Of a DNA stretch of 64,000 nt, positions 1 to 39,652 are shown in pieces. This DNA comes from a virus (taxonomy: Duplodnaviria; Caudoviricetes), in the IMG/VR virus record IMGVR_UViG_3300028048_000001, positions 1-64,000 of that record; one strand, 5' to 3'. Position numbers and translations under genes: made by a program. Within the stretch, counting starts at the first letter, position 1. The number at the start of each line of letters is the position of its first letter. Under the pieces are notes generated by a model. The model was not told the origin of the DNA and made no database searches. It saw only the letters and a list, made by a program, of their open reading frames with translations.

Positions 1-164
1 AATGGAGCACTATTAAAACAATTATATCCATTCAAAGGTGCAGTAGCAGTACTTCCATTATACCCATCAGGAAATACTATAGTTGAACCCCATTTAACAC
101 ATGTACAAGTATTAGTACCCCATTTAATAACAGTACATTTTGTACTACCCCATTTAATAGCCAT
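1..164 (-). CDS. Partial CDS (runs off the window) with three tandem [IV]KWGxxxCT-type repeats; possible tail fibre/adhesin-associated protein
   Basis: ATG at 164 translates MAIKWGSTKCTVIKWGTNTCTCVKWGSTIVFPDG...; open to position 1; not in the ORF track. Confidence 0.55.
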   Translation of the reverse strand, partial: MAIKWGSTKCTVIKWGTNTCTCVKWGSTIVFPDGYNGSTATAPLNGYNCFNSAP

Positions 165-362
165 ATAAAAAATATATTATTCTTTACATAGCACATACTA
201 GCGTCATATAAAATAAAAATCCATAGGAGCAATCCTATGGATTTTTATAAAAAAGAAAAATAATTTATATTTTAAAAAAAATATTAGATATATAAGAATT
301 TTTAATAAAAAATAAAAATCTATAAGAGATTTTTCTCCTATAGATTATAGATAAAAATAAAA

Positions 363-446
363 TGCTAGCAGTGGGACTTGAACCCACACGGTAAAATTAC
401 CATCGGATTTTAAGTCCGAAGCGTCTGCCTATTCCGCCATGCTAGC
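363..446 (-). tRNA. tRNA-Leu (UAA)
   Basis: Cloverleaf GCTAGCA...TGCTAGC-A, anticodon arm TCGGA-CT-TAA-AA-TCCGA, long variable arm, GGTTCAAGTCC T arm; no encoded CCA. Confidence 0.95.
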
Positions 447-450
447 ATAA

Positions 451-523
451 TCTCCGATGCGAGATTCGAACTCGCGACAACTTGATTAAAAGTCAAGTGC
501 TCTACCTCCTGAGCTAATCGGAG
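451..523 (-). tRNA. tRNA-Lys (UUU)
   Basis: Anticodon arm CTTGA-CT-TTT-AA-TCAAG, D arm GCTC/GAGC, GTTCGAATC T loop. Confidence 0.95.
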
Positions 524-527
524 TAAA

Positions 528-599
528 CAGCCCCAGGTGGAGTCGGACCACCAAATACAAGAGTCAAAGTCTTGTGCCTTACCGTTTGGCGATGGGGCT
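528..599 (-). tRNA. tRNA-Gln (UUG)
   Basis: Anticodon arm CAAGA-CT-TTG-AC-TCTTG; T loop is the variant TCCGACT. Confidence 0.9.
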
Positions 600-609
600 T
601 AATTAATTA

Positions 610-880
610 ATCTTTTTCTTATATCTCCCCACACGGGCAAGACATAATTTATTTGAGTCGATTATTCTCAAAAACTCCACTGGACCGATTGGGTCAATTC
701 CAGGAGAAGGTATTTTGTACCTTTGCCCATATCCATCCTTTAATCTCATCAGCCAGAGTATGGGAAAGAAACTGATGGGGTACTTGCAATCTTTATACCT
801 TTACAGAGTATAATCTCTGTATGGAAGTGAACGCACCTTCACCCAGGCTTGATAGACAGTACTATCTATCAAAAGATTGC
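610..880 (-). ncRNA. Unclassified structured RNA, copy 1 (four-way junction, pseudoknot, hairpins)
   Basis: Same helix order as 969-1259 with compensatory sequence changes; lies between two tRNAs. Confidence 0.7.
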
Positions 881-884
881 TCAA

Positions 885-958
885 TGGAGCGTCGGGGACT
901 CGAACCCAGGACCGGTCGGTTATGAGCCGACTGCTCTAACCAGCTGAGCTAACGCTCC
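885..958 (-). tRNA. tRNA with CAU anticodon (Ile2-like or Met)
   Basis: Anticodon arm GTCGG-CT-CAT-AA-CCGAC; body resembles Firmicute tRNA-Ile2 rather than initiator tRNA. Confidence 0.9.
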
Positions 959-968
959 TTACATGGTG

Positions 969-1259
969 ATCTTTTTCTTCCCAATTCATCATCGAATCGG
1001 TAATCTTTCGGTTGATCACTTAATCCGAAAACTCTATCTTGACTACGTGGGGTCTCAAGAGAGGTTATTGTATCACCTTGCCCATATTCTTCCCACAATC
1101 TATCAGCCCGAATATGGAAAAGACACTAAAAGCTGATAGAGATGCAGAGCACTTTTACCTTTTACAGATTAGGATCCTAGTAATCTGTTAATGTTTTGCA
1201 TCGAAACATTAGGAATACTATTTATATTAAATATTAATTTAATATAAATAAAGTGCTCT
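969..1259 (-). ncRNA. Unclassified structured RNA, copy 2
   Basis: P1 AGAGCACTTT/AAAGTGCTCT encloses three hairpins; then pseudoknot TCTATCAGC/GCTGATAGA with CCATATTC/GAATATGG; shared 3' AAGAAAAAGAT. Confidence 0.7.
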
Positions 1260-1315
1260 TCTTCTGATACATCTATCAGAAATTTTGTTTTATTTTGAAT
1301 GATTACTCATTCTCA

Positions 1316-1402
1316 AGCTGGCCTTTTTTATTTATGGGAAACGCACCACATAAATATTATGCATGTCTGCACCATGATAATGGGAGTATTGTCCAGCTAC
1401 TC
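1316..1402 (-). ncRNA. Structured RNA domain, repeated at 1629-1704
   Basis: P1 AGCTGG/CCAGCT versus GATTAG/CTAATC in the other copy; conserved ACAATACTYCCAT and ATGGTRCAGACATGYATAA. Confidence 0.6.
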
Positions 1403-1451
1403 TCTATTTTTCAATATTATATTATATAATTGAAAATTTTTATTTTTTAAA

Positions 1452-1525
1452 TCGGGATGACATGATTCGAACATGCGACTCCCTGTTCCCAAAACAGGTG
1501 CCCTACCAGACTGGGCCACATCCCG
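1452..1525 (-). tRNA. tRNA-Pro (UGG)
   Basis: CGGGATG/CATCCCG acceptor stem, anticodon arm CCTGT-TT-TGG-GA-ACAGG, GTTCGAATC T loop. Confidence 0.95.
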
Positions 1526-1532
1526 TAAATAA

Positions 1533-2147
1533 TAATGCACAGTGCATCCACTGTGACTAACTCATGATAATGACCCGAATTATCTAACCGGTATTCAGAT
1601 AATCCTATCATGTTCGGATTTATCCTAAGATTAGCCTTTTCACTATTAGTAAAAATAGTTATACATGTCTGTACCATTTTTATGGAAGTATTGTCTAATC
1701 ACTCTTATAATTAAATCTCCAAACCCAAAGAGATTTATGTCGAGTGTAATACCGATTTTTTATTGTAAAAGTTTTTACCATTACAATGGGACAAGATCTA
1801 AAAGCCCTACTTCATCACAATGTTTTGTGATATACCTATCTCGGGCAAGATAGCCATTATAATATTATGTATTTTTATTTATATATAACATTAAGTGATC
1901 AATTTAATATTATATATAAAAATATCTAATCCATAATAATTAGATACCATAAATAACCATATTTGGTCCGAAGATGTACTTTCTTCAACGGGCATATAAA
2001 ACAAGTAAACCTGTTTTTATTACCCTCAATTATGGTGGACGATCTTATATTTTTATTAATTAAAAAGAAGATCTTTACCCAGATAATTTATAGTCTATTA
2101 TGAAATTATAAAATTATCAAAATTATTTCATAACGTTCTTTGCATCA
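1533..2147 (-). ncRNA. Putative large (~615 nt) multi-hairpin non-coding RNA upstream of tRNA-Pro
   Basis: No credible ORF; dense succession of stem-loops; termini complementary (TGATGCA...TGCATTA). Confidence 0.5.
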
Positions 2148-2422
2148 TATATAAGGTTACTATTTAATATTAAAATAGTCTAGTTGTCCTAGAACGACTT
2201 GGCCAGCCATACCTCTATCGATATAATTATAAATATTTACCTTTGTTTTCTATCTATAGTTTATATCGATTATACGACACTAATAGTTATAGTAGTAATC
2301 GAAACTACTTATAATAATATGAATTATTATAATATACCAATATATAACCTTATTATTTATTATATTTTTTATACTACTCCTGCAACTCTGTACTTATTAG
2401 TTACAGGAGTAGTAAAATATTA

Positions 2423-4246
2423 TTATTTATAATTGAAGGATTTTATAATATTCATCCCCCAATTTAATATATTTCCTTTTATCGATGCTTTTGTAACCCA
2501 TAAAGCCAAGTTAATTTTGTCTGTATTTTCTACAATATTATCAAGAATTGTAGGATACAATCTCCAAATATCTTCTTTATTCTTGATAATTACAATTACA
2601 CTCTCTCCTTTCTGAGGCTGATTATTACTAGAATTATTTATCATTCTGGAAGCCTCCATAATATAGAAAGTATCAACATTACTTTCCATGAAATCTTCAT
2701 AAGTGCAGTTAAAAAGTAGAATTTCACCACCTTTTAAATTTTTCTGAGAAGTAATTTTTTCAAAAGCTTTTATATATCCCCCTGTATCTTCAATGTTACC
2801 GTTAATATATTGAGGGACATAACTTCCAGTTTTTGCATTATAGTGCATTGTGATAAGATTAACATCCATATCAATACATACTTTCATCACAGCACCATAT
2901 GCACATTGCATACCAGAAACATATAATTTCAACTGTTTAATTTTGTTGTTATTATATTCATCAAAATCAAAATTATTTCTAATAAAATCCCTTACAATTC
3001 TTTCTTGTTCTGGATAGTTAAACATTAATTCCTGATCGAAAGATTCAGGAAAAATGAATTTATTTACAGGCATTGGGTGTCTGTCTGCAATAAGTCCAGC
3101 TTCTACAGTTTCAGAATTATTTTTGGATGCAATGTTAAATGAAAAATTATCAAATCCAAAAATTTTCTGAAGTTCTGTAAATTTATCAGGATTAAATTCA
3201 AAATCATTGAGTCCCAATCTTGTTCTTTCAATTGTTTTATCATATTTTACTGTTTCACTGATAAATTGCAGTACTTCTTCATTGCTAATAATACCGTCCT
3301 CATTTTCAAATTTGGTATTACACGCTTTATGAGCATACTGCACAAATTCCTGATTTGTTACATCAAAGAAATCAATTAATCTTAAAATACCATCATTAAT
3401 GATTACAAAATAGTATCTGTTTCTAAAAGAGTTTAAAATCTCAAACTCTTTTTTGTTATTAATTACTATATCTTCTCTAAGATCAGCAGGAGATCTGTTT
3501 TTAGATATACACCAGATGACCTGTTTAGGAAATTTATCATTTTTAATATCATAAACAGGTAAATCTGTTACAAACTTTATTGTACAAATAGAATTTACCA
3601 CATTAGAATTAGGCTTTAAATCTCTATTTCTAATGGGACTCATTTTCTTATTGGTTTTCTTCATATTATCTTCCTCAAGTTTTTCCTCTTTTGCTTTTGC
3701 TGGTAATGTAATAATAACTGCACTAATATCAGTATCAGTATTTGGGCTTTTAGTAGTAGTAACATTTTTTGCTTTATCTTTCGATGTTACATTCCGAGAT
3801 TTTAATATCTCTTTTATTACATACTCGGACGTATTATATTTAGCTGCTAATTTATTCCTACTGTTACATGATGGATTAGTCATGTAATCTAAACAAACAT
3901 TATCTTTTTCTTCTTCAAGAAAGTCATATAACGTTTTTGTAATTTTGTGTACAAAATTACTATCTACTTCTTTATTTTTATCTTTTATTTTTGTTTCTTG
4001 TTCTTGTTTAGTCATGTCTACCTCTTTTGAGTTTTCTTTTAATAAAGTATTTAATAGAAGAGGATTCATTCCTCCTCTAACTTTTATAACTAATCCAGTA
4101 TCTACTTTAAATTTATTTGCTATTTGCCTTAAATCACTGGTTGTTAATAATTTATTACATCGTATAATTTCTCCTTTTATCTCATTTTCAATTTTTGGTA
4201 TTAATTCTTTTAATTGTTTCTTACTAAATGAACCTTTTTGACTCAT
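2423..4246 (-). CDS. Hypothetical protein (607 aa), probably early
   Basis: Long ORF, GAGG RBS, upstream early-type promoter motif at 4291-4307. Confidence 0.85.
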   Translation of the reverse strand: MSQKGSFSKKQLKELIPKIENEIKGEIIRCNKLLTTSDLRQIANKFKVDTGLVIKVRGGMNPLLLNTLLKENSKEVDMTKQEQETKIKDKNKEVDSNFVHKITKTLYDFLEEEKDNVCLDYMTNPSCNSRNKLAAKYNTSEYVIKEILKSRNVTSKDKAKNVTTTKSPNTDTDISAVIITLPAKAKEEKLEEDNMKKTNKKMSPIRNRDLKPNSNVVNSICTIKFVTDLPVYDIKNDKFPKQVIWCISKNRSPADLREDIVINNKKEFEILNSFRNRYYFVIINDGILRLIDFFDVTNQEFVQYAHKACNTKFENEDGIISNEEVLQFISETVKYDKTIERTRLGLNDFEFNPDKFTELQKIFGFDNFSFNIASKNNSETVEAGLIADRHPMPVNKFIFPESFDQELMFNYPEQERIVRDFIRNNFDFDEYNNNKIKQLKLYVSGMQCAYGAVMKVCIDMDVNLITMHYNAKTGSYVPQYINGNIEDTGGYIKAFEKITSQKNLKGGEILLFNCTYEDFMESNVDTFYIMEASRMINNSSNNQPQKGESVIVIIKNKEDIWRLYPTILDNIVENTDKINLALWVTKASIKGNILNWGMNIIKSFNYK

Positions 4247-5173: not shown

Positions 5174-5893
5174 TTATTCTTTTTTATTTTTGATCTCGCT
5201 ATATTTTTTCTGTTTATCTTTCTTCTTTTTAGTATTATATTCTTCTACTGCTTTTTTTGCTTCTTCAATTTTATCCATTACTTTTTTTCTTTCTTCAGCT
5301 TCTTTATTAACTTTATCTACAGTTTTATTAGCCATATTATCTATCTGATCTACTAAAGAAGATTCATTATTAATAGATTCTTTTTCATCATTATTATTAT
5401 TATTTTCTTCTACATTATTAGGATAATCGCTCTCTTTTCCAATGTTAACTTTTAATCCATATCTTCTACAGCCTCTGATAAGTTGCATTGGCCAATCATT
5501 ATTAATAGCTTTTCCTAAATTCTCTCCACCAAGAATGTTTTTATTTATACATTCACTAGGAAACACTACATGAAATTCAGCATTCTCAAGTTCTGGATTA
5601 TCACTAATATATTTTTCTAAAATTTGATTTGCAGCTTCATCAAATGGTTTATTTACAGCTTCACAGAAAGTAAAAAATTCAAAAGCTTCAATATAAACAG
5701 CTGGTTTTTCTCCAGTTGTAGCTACAATTTTAAGATTTTCTGGATTAGAAGCATTAATTTTCATAGCTTCTAATACCGTATTAGAAACAGGGACATTTAT
5801 ATTAGTTTCTGAGTAATTTGCAGATTCTTTAACACATTTATTTATAACATCAGACTCATATATAGTCTTAGCATTCATAATATCAAAATTCAT
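5174..5893 (-). CDS. Hypothetical late/virion protein
   Basis: ORF with RBS and AACT-N6-TA motif at 5922-5933. Confidence 0.75.
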   Translation of the reverse strand: MNFDIMNAKTIYESDVINKCVKESANYSETNINVPVSNTVLEAMKINASNPENLKIVATTGEKPAVYIEAFEFFTFCEAVNKPFDEAANQILEKYISDNPELENAEFHVVFPSECINKNILGGENLGKAINNDWPMQLIRGCRRYGLKVNIGKESDYPNNVEENNNNNDEKESINNESSLVDQIDNMANKTVDKVNKEAEERKKVMDKIEEAKKAVEEYNTKKKKDKQKKYSEIKNKKE

Positions 5894-31672: not shown

Positions 31673-34600
31673 TTAAGTAGTATACATTGATTGAAGAATA
31701 GATTGTTTAAGTGAAAAAAGACGATCAAAATTATTAATATCTTCAGGAGTATAGGTCTCTCTACCGCATCTAGCTAAAGTATTAGCATTGATAAGAGTAT
31801 CTCTTTGCATAGATACAGCAGAATTAAAATATCCATCATTTCTAGATATATACATTACATTTCTAGGGTTAAATTTCTCCCAAGCAAGTTTAATAAAAGT
31901 TTGATTAATTGGAAGAAGAATATTTAAAACATCCAATATCTTCACACAGGTCGCTAATCTGTGCAGTTCTCTTATGAACTTCTTCAGGTGTTACCCGAAT
32001 GTTGAGACTATATCTTCCTATACAATAAATATATAGGCACGCCCATTTTGAATTTGCTTAAATTCTCAAGAGGTACACTCATCTCTCTTTAGTCGTTGAA
32101 CCTTCTTCTGTTCTAGAAGCTTGGCTGCTGATCATCCAATCCTTAATAGTGTAACTATATCAAAATCCTATTATGGTTTGCCATTTATATATCCCTATAT
32201 AAATTTAGTCATTAAGGCTCTAAGGATTTTCCAGCAATTAGAGCGTGTTAGGCAATGTTATTTACCATCGAAATCTGCTGCCAACAAAGGCAAAGGTTGA
32301 AGGGGAACTGACATTGTATATGTTTCTGTAAATCCTACGCAAAACATACTTAATATACTTCCATAACTACGCTTTATTCACATAGAATCGTTGATATTAT
32401 CTCTCTTTCTATGCAGTTCTCTTATGAACTTCCCTATATTTCTATAGGATACTAGACTATATCTTTATCTGCCAATTAGATATTCACCATTTCGATTTAA
32501 AGGGTCTTACTTCCCTAAATGCCCTACCTACTTAGGCTCTAACTTCAAGATTATCTATTATGAGATATTCCTCTACAAATATCTGATATTGTGGAAATTG
32601 AAAAATTTGGAAAAAACTTTTCGGTTATTTCTTTATAATTATATCCATGCTCATTAAGATTTCTAATTAAATCAGCATCTTCATCTGTAAGTCGATGAAG
32701 ATTAGCAGGATTCTTTTTATATGAATCATAGTAAGATTTTGGTTGATAATTTGGATCATAATAAACCTTATTTAAACAAATATTTTGTATAGATGTACCA
32801 GATATATTTTTATACCCCATATTTTGTATTTGACTATAGCTATAACCTTGATCATGAAGATCTCTAATTTTATTAGCCTCATCATAATTAAGTTTATTAC
32901 AAGTTCTTACATTATTATTTTCAGCATGTATAACATTTTCTTTCATGGTGGCCCATTCAATATTAGAGTATAAAGATCCATCTGGCATAACTTTATTTAC
33001 ACAATTATTCGTTTTATCAAAATCTTTATGATTTACTGTTAATTGATCCATATTATTTATAGGATTAAATTTTTTAAGAACAAGTCTATGTATACTATAT
33101 TTCTTTTGTCCATTTTTACAATTATCTGCTGCTAAACAGACATATTGATATCCATTTGGCCGAAGATTAGGTTTAATCATTTTCCCAGATCTAATATTCA
33201 TTATTCTTCCATAGTTACTTACAGCATAATAATTTGGAAGAATATCTTTAGCTTCATTATCGGTTAAAACTTCAAATGTTTCACTTTCTTGAAGATCATC
33301 TGGTAAGAAAAATATGGCTTGTTTCATTGATGTATCATAGAGTCTTGTTCCTTTTGGACAAACTAATCCACCAAAATTACTATTTCCATTTTTTGTAACA
33401 TATTCTCCATTTTCATTATATCTTCCACTATCAGTTTCTTGAGTTGATCTCATAATATATTCTCCTTATATTTTTTAAAATTAAAATATAAAGAAAATAA
33501 TAATCTATTCAGATAGTCGTTGAACCTTCTTCTATTATTATAGAAGCTTGGCTGCTGATTGTCCATAAAATGGAGTTCCCAGCAATTAGATGAATTTTAA
33601 TATATGATATAATAACGTATTGGCATATCATATATTCGACATTATTCCCTTTATATTTTAATTATTTTTTATAACAATAATTAAAGATAACAGAGGGAGT
33701 CCGAATATCGTAGGGTTCCGATTTATTATTACGCTTAAACCAGGTAAACCTTTCTTCTTCTCATTATCTATTATACTTTGTATTATACTGCTTATTCTAT
33801 CTACTGGCTCAATTGTTGCTTTATACCATAATTGATGAGCTTCATTAGGACTCATATTATATGATCTGCATAATATATTTTTTATTCTTTGTTCAAGCAT
33901 TATTGCAAGTCCTATTACAGGTAATGTAACCTCATCAATTCTTAAATCGGGATTCTGAACTATAACATTTCTACTACTGAAGTTATATCGTCCTCCCAAT
34001 AAACATCTAAAATCTCCTTTTTTACCACTTAATATAGTTTCCAGCTCTGTATATAATTCCATAAATTTTTTCTGTAAATTATATAATTGCTGATTCTTTA
34101 TTTTTGGCTCTCTTTGTATTTTGGTTTTATTTCTATTTATTGTAGTTACTAATTTATTCATCATAGTATACATGGCATTTGTAGGTTCATATGTCATATT
34201 TCCATCTTTAATATCAAATGGTCTTAATAACGTAGTAAATACTGGTATACTATGTGTAAATACTATATTTCTGTGTTCATAAATATCATCATAATTTTCT
34301 TTCTTAGTAGGCCTTTTTCGTAAATAGAAATCCATTATTTCATCAAATCTTTTTACAAATTCAACCATACCAATTCCAAAAAACGGTTCATCTTTATTTT
34401 TAGTTTCAATTGCTTTACTAGATAAAGGAGTTACTATATCTGAAATATCTAAAATATTTTCTAATTTAGTTCTTTTAACTCCTTGTATAGTAATACCTTT
34501 ACCTAAGAAAATATCTATCTTTTTATAAAATGCTGGGTGTATAATAACAAAGGGATCTTTTAATACCATCCACCCAAAATAACTAAAATTATCATCTACA

Positions 34601-37897: not shown

Positions 37898-39652
37898 TTA
37901 CGGTTGACCTTTACGGATTCCCGACCGATTTATAATTTCGACGCGAGACTGTACCGGCTGATACTCGTCAACTAAGAATCTCTCAAATGCAGTAACAGCA
38001 GGAAGAGCAGGATTCTGAACGTTTCTAAGCTCATTGGAAACATACATCTGATAATCGTAGATTCTATACGTTACTCTGTTGGAGTTGTGTGGCATTAAAA
38101 GTACTATTAAATCGTTTTGCCACCTGAGTTTATCACTGCCAATGAACTGATAGACTCTCTTATCACTGGTAACAACAGTTCTCTTGAAGTCAAGATCCAC
38201 AGGACCAATGCTGCTCGGGCTTGTATAAGTATACTCAATAGGAGTAATCTTTCTAACAAGATCCGGATCACCGAAAATGGTAATAACCATATTAGGATCA
38301 TTCAGAACCTGAAGCATTCTGGTAACCTCAGAATCAAATGCATCAAAGAACATGCTGTGTCTCCAGGTAAGAGGATCAAGAGCATATCCAACAGGCGGAG
38401 CATAATCAAACTCCATGTAACCTCTACTATTCTCAGGAAGTCTATCATAAGACTCATCAAGATACTGCTTAATCTTATCATCCTTGTAGTTAGCAAGAGT
38501 GGTCTTAAGCAGGCTCATAATCTTGGTAAGCTGATTAACCTGATACAGAGCAGCAAGATCTTTAACCTCTTCAGGACTAATGGTAACACTCAGCGGAATA
38601 GCATTAGGAATCTCAATAAGTTTAGTATCAACCTTCCACTTAACAGTGCAGGTGTCAAGCATATGGTTAGCAGTATCAAGTTCTGCACTAAGCATAACTT
38701 TCTTCACTTCACCCTTAGCAGAGATAACAGTAAAGATATTCTTATCCATAGTGCCTGCAAGAACATCAGAGATCTTCTTGTTAGCATCAGCAGACTCTCT
38801 CACAACAAGCTGAACAGGAGCATTAAAGCTTCTCTCATACTGATTGTAACCAGGCTGGAACAGAATATTCACTGGGAACCAAACATTCTCAACTTCACCC
38901 TCATCAGCAGCAGTAGCAATAGGTCCATTTGGACGAATAAATCCATCAGCATCAGGCATGATATCACCCTCAGCAATATACATCTTCTCAATCTGTATAG
39001 CGGATATATGAGTCTTAATGCTAAGAGCATCAAGCTTAGTACCACCACAAAGAGCAAGAACATCGGTCTCACCAATCTCAGGAAGTTCAAGCTCAATATT
39101 ATAAACAGGATTAGAAGCATCAATTGCAGGGGTCATCTTATTCTGATCGGTGAACATATCGATCTCGTTACCCTGAGTATCAACAAGAATTCTCTTTTCC
39201 ATACTCATGGTGAACTTAGGACCTTCAGCAACAACTTTCTGAATAGCACCCTTATCGAAGACCATATTCATAAGAATATTCTTATGGACAGGGAAAGTCA
39301 TACCGATAACCGGGTTATAATCAGCCATATCAGCATGCTCAAAGACAGCTTCAACATCGTTCTCAAACTGTTGTTCCATCATTGCATACTGATCTTCAAT
39401 ATAGCCAGGATCATTCATGAAAGGATCATTGGTATTCTCATCCATGAAATTACTGCAGAAGAATTCTTTAAGAGCTTCTTTAGCTGCAGGTCTACGAAGA
39501 ACCTTTTTCGGCTCTTCAAAAATATCCATACCAGACTCATTAAGCAGGTTCTTAGCAAACTCTGCGAAAGATTGGACATAGTTAGTCATAGGATCTTTAG
39601 AGTAAGAACCACCAACAAAACCAGTCTTGGTAGAAAGCTTACCAATAGGCAT
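37898..39652 (-). CDS. Probable major capsid protein
   Basis: 584 aa, markedly higher GC and strong codon bias typical of a highly expressed gene, strong RBS, late-type motif at 39787-39798, terminator downstream; identity inferred. Confidence 0.7.
   Translation of the reverse strand: MPIGKLSTKTGFVGGSYSKDPMTNYVQSFAEFAKNLLNESGMDIFEEPKKVLRRPAAKEALKEFFCSNFMDENTNDPFMNDPGYIEDQYAMMEQQFENDVEAVFEHADMADYNPVIGMTFPVHKNILMNMVFDKGAIQKVVAEGPKFTMSMEKRILVDTQGNEIDMFTDQNKMTPAIDASNPVYNIELELPEIGETDVLALCGGTKLDALSIKTHISAIQIEKMYIAEGDIMPDADGFIRPNGPIATAADEGEVENVWFPVNILFQPGYNQYERSFNAPVQLVVRESADANKKISDVLAGTMDKNIFTVISAKGEVKKVMLSAELDTANHMLDTCTVKWKVDTKLIEIPNAIPLSVTISPEEVKDLAALYQVNQLTKIMSLLKTTLANYKDDKIKQYLDESYDRLPENSRGYMEFDYAPPVGYALDPLTWRHSMFFDAFDSEVTRMLQVLNDPNMVITIFGDPDLVRKITPIEYTYTSPSSIGPVDLDFKRTVVTSDKRVYQFIGSDKLRWQNDLIVLLMPHNSNRVTYRIYDYQMYVSNELRNVQNPALPAVTAFERFLVDEYQPVQSRVEIINRSGIRKGQP

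Follow-up and report, generated by a model that had tools for sequence, protein, structure and literature searches.

Two diverged copies of a pseudoknotted RNA of no described family lie in the tRNA operon of a rumen jumbo phage

The DNA analysed here (the window) comprises the initial 64 kb of an IMG/VR record that is complete at 274,241 bp and has a G+C content of 26.6%. It belongs to a jumbo phage of the cattle rumen that carries multisubunit RNA polymerase genes. The major head protein, encoded at 37898-39652, has thousands of relatives, which places the phage in a large clade from rumen and gut. As the lysins of relatives bear choline-binding repeats, the host is likely to be a Gram-positive bacterium of the rumen. 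The genome has five tRNA genes in total, all on the minus strand between positions 362 and 1525, in the order Pro, Met, Gln, Lys, Leu. About 900 nt with few ORFs and many hairpins separate tRNA-Pro from a 607-codon gene (2423-4246). At the opposite side, the hairpin and T run at 346-317 probably mark the end of the operon. A preliminary description of this locus had recognised two diverged copies of a single structured RNA among the tRNA genes. That they lie within a jumbo-phage tRNA operon is borne out by the present analysis, and all the elements named in that description are found on the minus strand at the positions collected in Table 1. The operon contains in addition a second duplicated module, whose two copies lie at approximately 1704-1526 and 1402-1316.

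Table 1. Positions of tRNA genes, RNA copies and their structural elements in the window.
Feature	Position	Strand	Source	Details
tRNA-Pro (UGG)	1452-1525	-	ARAGORN, Rfam	
Upstream partner of copy B	1263-1451	-		between tRNA-Pro and copy B; AT hairpin, second duplicated four-way-junction module (~1402-1316), two small hairpins
Copy B	959-1262	-		304 nt; stops at tRNA-Met 5' end; 5' side continues into the upstream four-way-junction module
Copy B four-way junction	1146-1259	-		closing helix 1259-1250 with 1155-1146; hairpins 1249-1220, 1211-1189, 1188-1164; then linker AAAAGGUA
Copy B H-type pseudoknot	1081-1140	-		stem 1, 1140-1131 with 1108-1099; stem 2, 1118-1110 with 1089-1081
Copy B 3' hairpins	981-1078	-		1078-1062, 1063-1032, 1029-1007, 1000-981
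Copy B conserved tail	969-979	-		AAGAAAAAGAT (= AAGAAAAAGAU), identical to A; ends exactly 10 nt before tRNA-Met (958)
tRNA-Met (CAU)	885-958	-	ARAGORN, Rfam	separates copy A from copy B
Copy A	600-884	-		285 nt; the whole spacer from tRNA-Met 3' end to tRNA-Gln 5' end
Copy A four-way junction	786-880	-		closing helix 880-872 with 794-786; hairpins 871-850, 845-822, 820-803; then linker AAAGGUAU
Copy A H-type pseudoknot	726-777	-		stem 1, 777-770 with 754-747; stem 2, 764-756 with 734-726; GGGCAA next
Copy A 3' hairpins	624-722	-		722-708, 706-675, 671-653, 642-624
Copy A conserved tail	610-620	-		AAGAAAAAGAT (= AAGAAAAAGAU); ends exactly 10 nt before tRNA-Gln (599)
tRNA-Gln, tRNA-Lys, tRNA-Leu	362-599	-	ARAGORN, Rfam	end of the operon
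Intrinsic-terminator-like hairpin and T run	317-346	-		directly after tRNA-Leu

Ten helices, arranged alike, make up each copy; they form a four-way junction, then an H-type pseudoknot and then four further hairpins, after which comes the A-rich tail. The closing helix of the junction, 9 to 10 bp in the two copies, is formed by GCAATCTTT/AAAGATTGC in copy A and by AGAGCACTTT/AAAGTGCTCT in copy B, and in both an AAAGGT(A) linker comes after the three enclosed hairpins. Stem 1 of the pseudoknot pairs CATCAG(TT) with (GG)CTGATG in A and TCTATCAGCT with GGCTGATAGA in B; stem 2 pairs CCCATA.TC with GG.TATGGG in A and TCCATATTC with GAATATGGG in B. The 5' strands of the two stems are 7 nt apart in A and 14 nt apart in B, and 15 nt devoid of any hairpin lie between the 3' strands. 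Loop 1 is rich in pyrimidines and loop 3 in purines. The conserved pseudoknot core includes three invariant single-stranded blocks, UCUUU, AGAUU and GGGCAA, the last of which leads from the pseudoknot into an AGGT/ACCT hairpin (AGGU/ACCU in the RNA). While this hairpin had been described correctly, it is followed by three more hairpins and not by two as initially counted. The report of an identical tail, AAGAAAAAGAT, placed exactly 10 nt ahead of the next tRNA in both copies proved accurate.

Some features of these segments led elsewhere. A role of AAGAAAAAGAT as a promoter was discarded, the sequence having eleven other occurrences in the genome at no fixed distance from genes. An AAAGGA..AUG arrangement mimicking a ribosome binding site in loop 3 of copy A was set aside, as it is weak in copy B. 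The conserved UCUUU of pseudoknot loop 1 is complementary to AAAGG of the junction and to AAAGA of the tail, with no variation to discriminate between these partners. Matches of 15 nt elsewhere in the genome correspond to coding repeats.

A systematic survey of loop-loop complementarity, in which any pairing was required in both copies, pointed to two candidate tertiary contacts. The loop of hairpin 2 could pair with the linker that follows the closing helix (GGUGC/GUACC in A, GAUGCA/UGCAUC in B), and the loop of hairpin 7 with nucleotides from the GAU of the tail onward (UAAUC/GAUUA in A, GUGAUC/GAUCAC in B). The second of these would anchor the 3' end of the RNA. Given that the rough odds for each lie near the multiple-testing level, both contacts are put forward as proposals and not as findings. 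The survey of A and B loops for heterodimer pairing gave nothing convincing. Two hairpin tips are self-complementary, AGUACU (AGCGCU in a variant) and GGAUCC; they could hint at kissing dimers, with a count that is near chance and a double change that perhaps reflects a templated DNA event.

Both copies fold more stably than shuffled sequences, with z-scores of -3.4 (A) and -3.6 (B) and no shuffle equalling either one. A covariance model was built from copy A and its strain variant only, on a hand-drawn structure with 65 nested pairs. Its sole match in the 274-kb genome is copy B, recovered from end to end (963-1260) with 48 to 56 bits and E values of 1e-11 to 7e-14. A model using sequence only recovers the 3' three quarters of copy B (41.5 bits), so that A and B are true paralogues; their 5' domains (the first 60-odd positions) resemble each other in architecture only. 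The four sequences at hand were then aligned by fitting them to the structure; they represent two deep lineages only, and covariation is accordingly thin. Of the cells in this alignment, 96.1% form standard pairs, and a double-sided change is seen in 24 of the 73 pairs. Slid controls yield 0 to 3 such pairs, and none of 500 shuffles reaches the observed value. The helices of the four-way junction of A covary with those of B. The pseudoknot stems are conserved in sequence; because the changes found there are five one-sided, wobble-type ones and zero double ones, these stems rest on conservation, not covariation. One result counts against the explanation we favour below: in the minimum-free-energy fold of copy A, the 5' end pairs with the tail, in place of the closing helix.

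The strand is indicated by two observations. Folding is stronger for the minus strand than for its complement (-81.0 versus -71.0 kcal/mol for A, -79.3 versus -75.2 kcal/mol for B), and the G-U pairs make sense on the minus strand only. The functional RNA is thus the strand read in the direction of the tRNAs.

Natural variation gave a further view of the fold. An ENA rumen contig (L029) has both copies at 96-97% identity, next to a gene that is 96% identical in protein; a third variant of copy B is present in a contig from an RNA run. In a JGI metagenome contig (L054), the only contig returned by the stricter of our patterns, both copies are identical to those of the window. Between the window and L029 there are 19 differences inside the RNAs, 13 of which fall in loops or linkers. 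Two of the six at paired positions jointly displace hairpin 2 in copy A by a single register, a compensating shift that keeps three pairs; three replace A-U or G-C by G-U or the reverse; the sixth opens the terminal pair of stem 1, a pair that is missing in copy A anyway. Every internal pair survives. The wobble changes extend to the pseudoknots: an A to G at position 730 turns an A-U pair of copy A into G-U, and a C to U turns a G-C pair of copy B into G-U. Under a rough neutral model of our own, with half of the bases paired and three quarters of random stem changes disruptive, the probability of one disruptive change or fewer in 19 is about 0.001. Altogether, the swapping of helices between the copies and the preservation of pairs between strains support the notion, already advanced from the compensatory changes, that the structure is under selection. 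Because the divergence between A and B far exceeds that between strains, either the duplication would be old or the two copies may have been acquired separately from unsampled phages.

The same variation bears on coding capacity. Two frames, one of 48 codons at 749-603 and one of 49 codons at 1098-949, are open in the window and have Y-G-Q residues in common, so that A and B might be thought to specify small proteins. This is hardly conceivable. The shared AAGAAAAAGAT falls in different reading frames in A and B; insertions of one base disrupt the frame of copy B both in L029 and in the variant from the RNA run, and the only start codon of this frame is TTG; and copy A differs from its variant by four non-synonymous changes to one synonymous change. 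With no frame conserved between copies and strains, a protein-coding gene was rejected and we treat both copies as non-coding.

At gathering thresholds, the 4227 models of Rfam 15 detect only the five tRNAs in the window. In permissive mode (positions 1-3500, E up to 10), nothing is found on 600-884 or 959-1262. As this mode does detect the real group I introns of the genome, located in an RNA polymerase gene and scoring 61, 39.5 and 29 bits, the null result on both copies is meaningful. The RNA, whose family had not been recognised initially, is thus without a match in either mode. Individual candidates were dismissed on structural grounds as well. A group I intron is contradicted by the lack of an RF00028 match at E up to 10 and by a pseudoknot too tight to accommodate P4-P6 or a P8 hairpin. 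ARAGORN and RF00005 find the five true tRNAs only, and the junction differs from a tRNA or tRNA-like element by its closing helix of 9-10 bp and its arms of 6-13 bp. An HDV-like ribozyme would require P3 and P4 hairpins, in place of which there are 4-6 nt and 15 unpaired nt, and Rfam yields no match. Finally, CUGAUGAG of copy A is reminiscent of the hammerhead core; copy B has CUGAUAGA instead, and Rfam gives no hammerhead match.

To define the distribution of the RNA, we compared eight IMG/VR records and seven further contigs with a homologue of the adjacent gene. All complete relatives keep Pro, Met (typed Ile in one), Gln, Lys and Leu just after this gene, with very unlike spacers. The tRNA genes are 7-63 nt apart in the compact operons (L055, L031 and L057), whereas in some relatives HNH endonuclease genes lie between tRNA-Pro and tRNA-Met. 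In a relative whose head protein is 96% identical (G002), tRNA-Met and tRNA-Gln are separated by a truncated tRNA-like piece together with an HNH gene and a folded RNA of 730 nt; another relative has small ORFs in its spacers, and several have a Lys-Leu spacer of about 176 nt. The second duplicated module is present across relatives (L028, L030-L033). RNA A/B is absent from the relatives by BLAST, by nhmmer with all filters off and by covariance model. The copy A model finds nothing in the full records of the eight relatives, in two other large viral records, in the tRNA loci of the relatives, in Phass-1 or in T4. Phass-1 had been a promising candidate for the length of its tRNA spacers (220 and 283 nt), which turned out to be unrelated in sequence. 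A weak likeness was seen between the region of hairpins 5-6 and part of the 730-nt RNA of G002 (nhmmer E 7.6).

Broader searches gave a similar outcome. When the whole RNA region was compared by BLAST to 50,697 phage records, only tRNAs matched, and neither the adjacent 607-residue protein nor an 868-residue protein returned IMG/VR loci. The exact pattern TCTTTNCCATANTCNGGCTGAT has 0 matches in IMG/VR. The pattern CTGAT-N0-1-AGATT-N8-12-TRTGGGCAA has 17 in IMG/VR and 79 in GTDB, none of them confirmed by the model and hence attributable to chance, and a third pattern has 4 in IMG/VR, again with none confirmed. Covarying homologues, for which a search of other jumbo phages had been proposed, were not found there with the model, which was run on the retrieved sequences and pattern matches; this lowers the reach of the finding, not its reality. 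Since the relatives keep the five-tRNA operon and fill its spacers with other cargo, the RNA is accessory cargo restricted to one phage lineage. Its absence from the closest sequenced relatives, including the one with the 96% identical capsid protein, implies that it cannot be essential for the operon.

The variety of this cargo raises the question of whether A and B are themselves functionless remnants of mobile cargo in decay, be it a group I intron, a cassette with a homing endonuclease or tRNA pseudogenes. We regard this as quite improbable. In its favour, the genome is rich in group I introns, and relatives fill these slots with HNH genes, the truncated tRNA-like piece mentioned above and other folded RNA; moreover, one 10-mer, ATGTTTCGAT, is common to hairpin 2 of copy B and the T-arm-like portion of that truncated tRNA. 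However, the permissive Rfam search that identifies the real introns leaves A and B blank, the pseudoknot lacks the space for intron domains, and the junction domain is matched by neither tRNA models nor ARAGORN. Nor would decay preserve ten helices through many compensatory changes and strain divergence.

Expression was assessed from Logan contigs of four bovine-gut metatranscriptome runs, each from a different study; such contigs show abundance, not RNA ends. Contigs identical to the window span 549-927 (all of copy A), 657-811, 982-1396, 1037-1386 (depth 1074) and 1077-1386, as well as 1528-2223 further upstream. In the same runs, the neighbouring 607-codon gene has a depth of 0-6, the RNA region being 40 to 290 times more abundant, so that DNA carry-over is no explanation for the RNA signal. 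The copy B segment is 2 to 6 times deeper than other parts of the operon in the four RNA runs. Because the deepest contigs continue unbroken from the upstream four-way-junction module into copy B, the latter probably forms the 3' portion of a more extended spacer RNA, with a maximum of about 493 nt (1451 to 959), instead of the separate unit of about 290 nt first described. The contig at 549-927 spans both tRNA junctions of copy A, which means that unprocessed precursor or DNA is also present. In one RNA run (X14), copy A has no contig although copy B reaches depth 1074. The contig breaks at 1386-1396 stem from a repeat shared with a co-occurring strain.

These data can be set against the idea that A and B are purely cis-acting spacers, which would allow the neighbouring tRNAs to fold and be cut independently, or shield the precursor from exonucleases, and would be left as by-products afterwards. 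Such a role would account for the way in which the elements fill the exact gaps between tRNAs and for the fixed 10-nt distance between the conserved tail and the next tRNA. We consider it unlikely, though deserving of some weight. Relatives run the same five tRNAs on the short spacers of their compact operons, indicating that the operon needs nothing of the kind. About 280 nt, ten conserved helices and two old paralogues go far beyond what an insulator needs, and the greater depth of copy B is unlike that of a discarded by-product.

We also weighed a ribozyme of a new class, self-cleaving or cutting the adjoining tRNA precursor in cis, which would lessen the dependence on host enzymes. The conserved pseudoknot core with its invariant blocks and the fixed distance to the tRNA 5' end would suit such an activity. 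In addition, the depth-1074 contig ends at 1037, in a hairpin bulge of copy B, where it abuts Illumina adapter letters, which weakly hints at a discrete end. This end occurs in one run only, however, and contigs cannot establish ends. No self-cleaving class of Rfam and no RNase P model matches at E up to 10, and the HDV-like P3 and P4 are lacking. On balance, we find a ribozyme very improbable.

We propose that A and B are paralogous genes for a compact, multi-pseudoknot non-coding RNA of no described family. In what we hold to be the probable scenario, this is a stable RNA that rides the tRNA operon, has its ends set by tRNA processing, is protected by its knotted fold and acts in trans on a partner. 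The copies occupy accessory slots of the five-tRNA operon and are transcribed together with the tRNAs from the minus strand. The cut at the 5' end of the following tRNA, most likely by RNase P, would leave the conserved tail plus 10 nt at one end of the RNA, whereas the other end would be set by the normal 3' processing of the preceding tRNA. Owing to its tight fold, possibly with the 3' tail tied to an internal loop, the RNA would accumulate as a stable product and act in trans during infection. Excision by tRNA processing, offered as an inference in the preliminary description, keeps that standing here, and the exact ends and the action in trans share it.

From a wider perspective, the spacers of this conserved operon of five tRNAs act as interchangeable sites that receive RNA genes or homing endonucleases, a point that bears on how phages take up and express non-coding cargo. 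The system has its weaknesses: its distribution is narrow and its host is uncultured. On the other hand, it is a small and tractable example (about 280 nt) for which natural expression data exist, with close relatives devoid of the RNA that can serve as controls. The two natural variants, having different helices and the same fold, constitute a built-in set of compensatory mutations.

The core of the RNA invites comparison with well-known pseudoknots. Telomerase RNA and the SAM-II and preQ1-II riboswitches contain pseudoknots of the H type in which loop 1 is rich in pyrimidines and loop 3 in purines. The order of strands in A/B is the same: stem 1, U/C-rich loop, stem 2, short loop, stem 1', A/G-rich loop, stem 2'. 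Unlike these examples, A/B gives no Rfam match, has six nucleotides separating stem 2 from stem 1', compared with none or one in the classical arrangement, and embeds the pseudoknot in a much larger RNA that lies upstream of no gene. Closer at hand, the second duplicated module of the operon has its own four-way junction with three hairpins, closes after an AAAAGG junction, and is likewise duplicated, adjacent to tRNAs and missing from Rfam, with one copy fused upstream of copy B. It differs in its junction sequences (GAGU..ACAAUAC..CAGACAUG) and in its 3' domain, and it is conserved across a wider clade in which A/B is absent.

The best reading likens A and B to the RNAs encoded in phage tRNA islands, namely RNAC and RNAD of T4 and the ROOL and GOLLD RNAs. 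RNAC and RNAD, which we take to measure some 120-140 nt and to lie after the last tRNA, as our inspection of the T4 region suggests, are non-tRNA RNAs made along with the tRNAs of the operon, two in number as here. The RNAs described here are larger (about 280 nt), are located between tRNAs and combine a four-way junction with a pseudoknot. RNAC (species 1) and RNAD (species 2) are small stable RNAs from the tRNA gene region of T4, with no known role (PMC3014915, PMC9697503). The T4 tRNA cluster also contains the homing endonuclease gene segB (PMC2330249), much as HNH genes occupy the same slots in the relatives of this phage. There is no homology between the two systems: with filters off, the copy A model gives only noise on the T4 tRNA region holding RNAC (best score, 7.7 bits).

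ROOL and GOLLD share with A/B a phage-borne location, often beside tRNA islands, an abundant transcript, a pseudoknotted structure and the lack of a known protein partner; location in a phage, adjacency to tRNAs and abundance are the traits that mark their niche, and A/B has all three. ROOL is about 580 nt long and GOLLD exceeds 800 nt, compared with about 280 nt for A/B. Both are in the Rfam library, and neither matches A/B at E up to 10; they occur in many phyla, A/B in one phage lineage. These large ornate RNAs are found near phage tRNA islands; ROOL was first identified in rumen samples, and one GOLLD that has been studied adjoins a tRNA-Met (10.1101/2024.12.08.627333). A bolder and rather improbable view is that A and B are the first members of a new class of compact phage RNAs in which three pseudoknots (the H-type one and the two loop pairings that covary between copies) secure the fold, and which could have an activity of their own. 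If so, they might form RNA-only particles like ROOL and GOLLD at half the size, or act as a ribozyme or decoy on tRNA maturation or on a host defence that targets tRNAs. Phage tRNA islands have repeatedly yielded abundant, intricate RNAs of obscure purpose; the puzzle of RNAC and RNAD is fifty years old, that of ROOL and GOLLD more recent. Showing no homology to any of the four, A and B stand as a new RNA family within this known kind of system.

The operon contains a second RNA module that is also duplicated and takes the form of a four-way junction (coordinates of most features are collected in the table). Its two copies share the junction letters GAGU..ACAAUAC..CAGACAUG..AAAAGG, in which GAGU may pair with ACUY within the junction, while the closing helix has been swapped in sequence from one copy to the other. 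Rfam holds no entry for this module. It is kept in all the clade relatives sampled, usually directly before tRNA-Met; in contrast, the paired RNAs of the tRNA operon, copies A and B, lack such clade-wide conservation.

The operon spacers act like exchangeable slots. In the related phage sequence G002, the place occupied by copy A in the window phage carries other cargo: a truncated tRNA-like piece with anticodon-loop CCUUAAA (RF00005 model positions 8-63, 24.7 bits), an HNH endonuclease ORF and a folded RNA of about 730 nt with a terminator-like hairpin at its end. Only 3 nt separate tRNA-Lys from tRNA-Leu in the window phage, versus approximately 160-176 nt in several relatives, where the interval may be a further spacer RNA. 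Parts of the operon head are conserved in G002 (71-78% identity); the head has no Rfam match, and positions 1528-2223 are covered by RNA-library contigs at a depth of 172 in one run.

Certain hairpins of copies A and B have self-complementary six-mers at their tips. In a rumen contig representing a strain variant, the copy A tip AGUACU has become AGCGCU through two neighbouring changes, and the copy B tip GGAUCC is unchanged despite altered flanks. Such tips could form kissing-loop dimers or could reflect templated mutation in a quasi-palindrome. A contig of depth 1074 from X14, a bovine-gut metatranscriptome run, stops at position 1037, abutting Illumina adapter letters. The contig end falls in the bulge of copy B's sixth helix and may mark either a discrete RNA terminus or a cleavage site, seen in this one run only.

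A permissive Rfam run on a 3.6-kb input identified a group I intron at 31982-32302 in the window (61 bits, against a gathering score of 50). The same intron was absent from the list returned by the gathering run on the entire 64-kb window; thus, fast filters on long inputs can lose true matches. A JGI contig (L054, 1-2388) is identical over the locus and extends 2 kb beyond position 1; at this place, therefore, the genome does not physically end where the record starts. A comparison of the record's two ends found no terminal repeat of at least 50 bp, even though direct terminal repeats are listed in IMG/VR.

Coordinates of features in the window, related phages and Phass-1
Feature	Location	Strand
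Second module, window	1526-1760; 1263-1451	minus
Second module, relatives	L028 (G002) 1066-1270; L031 4133-4360; L032 8374-8604	
Operon head (~640 nt, hairpin-rich, ORF-poor)	window 1761-2400	minus
tRNA-Met/tRNA-Gln slot, G002	L028 1356-2800	
HNH endonuclease ORF in that slot	L028 1469-2058	
tRNA-Lys/tRNA-Leu spacer, relatives	L031 4602-4777; L055 7891-8066; L032 9772-9931	
Self-complementary hairpin tips	window 863-858; L029 (strain variant) 5808-5813; window 1180-1172	
Lysin, relatives	L030 804-1739; L032 1534-2469	
Phass-1 folded spacers and tRNA-like sequence	L002 2672-3000, 3074-3293 and 5046-5328	

In the lysin of the relatives, choline-binding-type repeats accompany a glycoside hydrolase 25 domain, a domain make-up that points to Gram-positive bacteria as hosts of the clade. 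Between its tRNA genes, Phage Phass-1, a code-15 gut phage, likewise has G+C-rich folded spacers (220-283 nt); a tRNA-like sequence that lacks annotation precedes its tRNA-Gln. These elements bear no sequence relationship to copies A and B.
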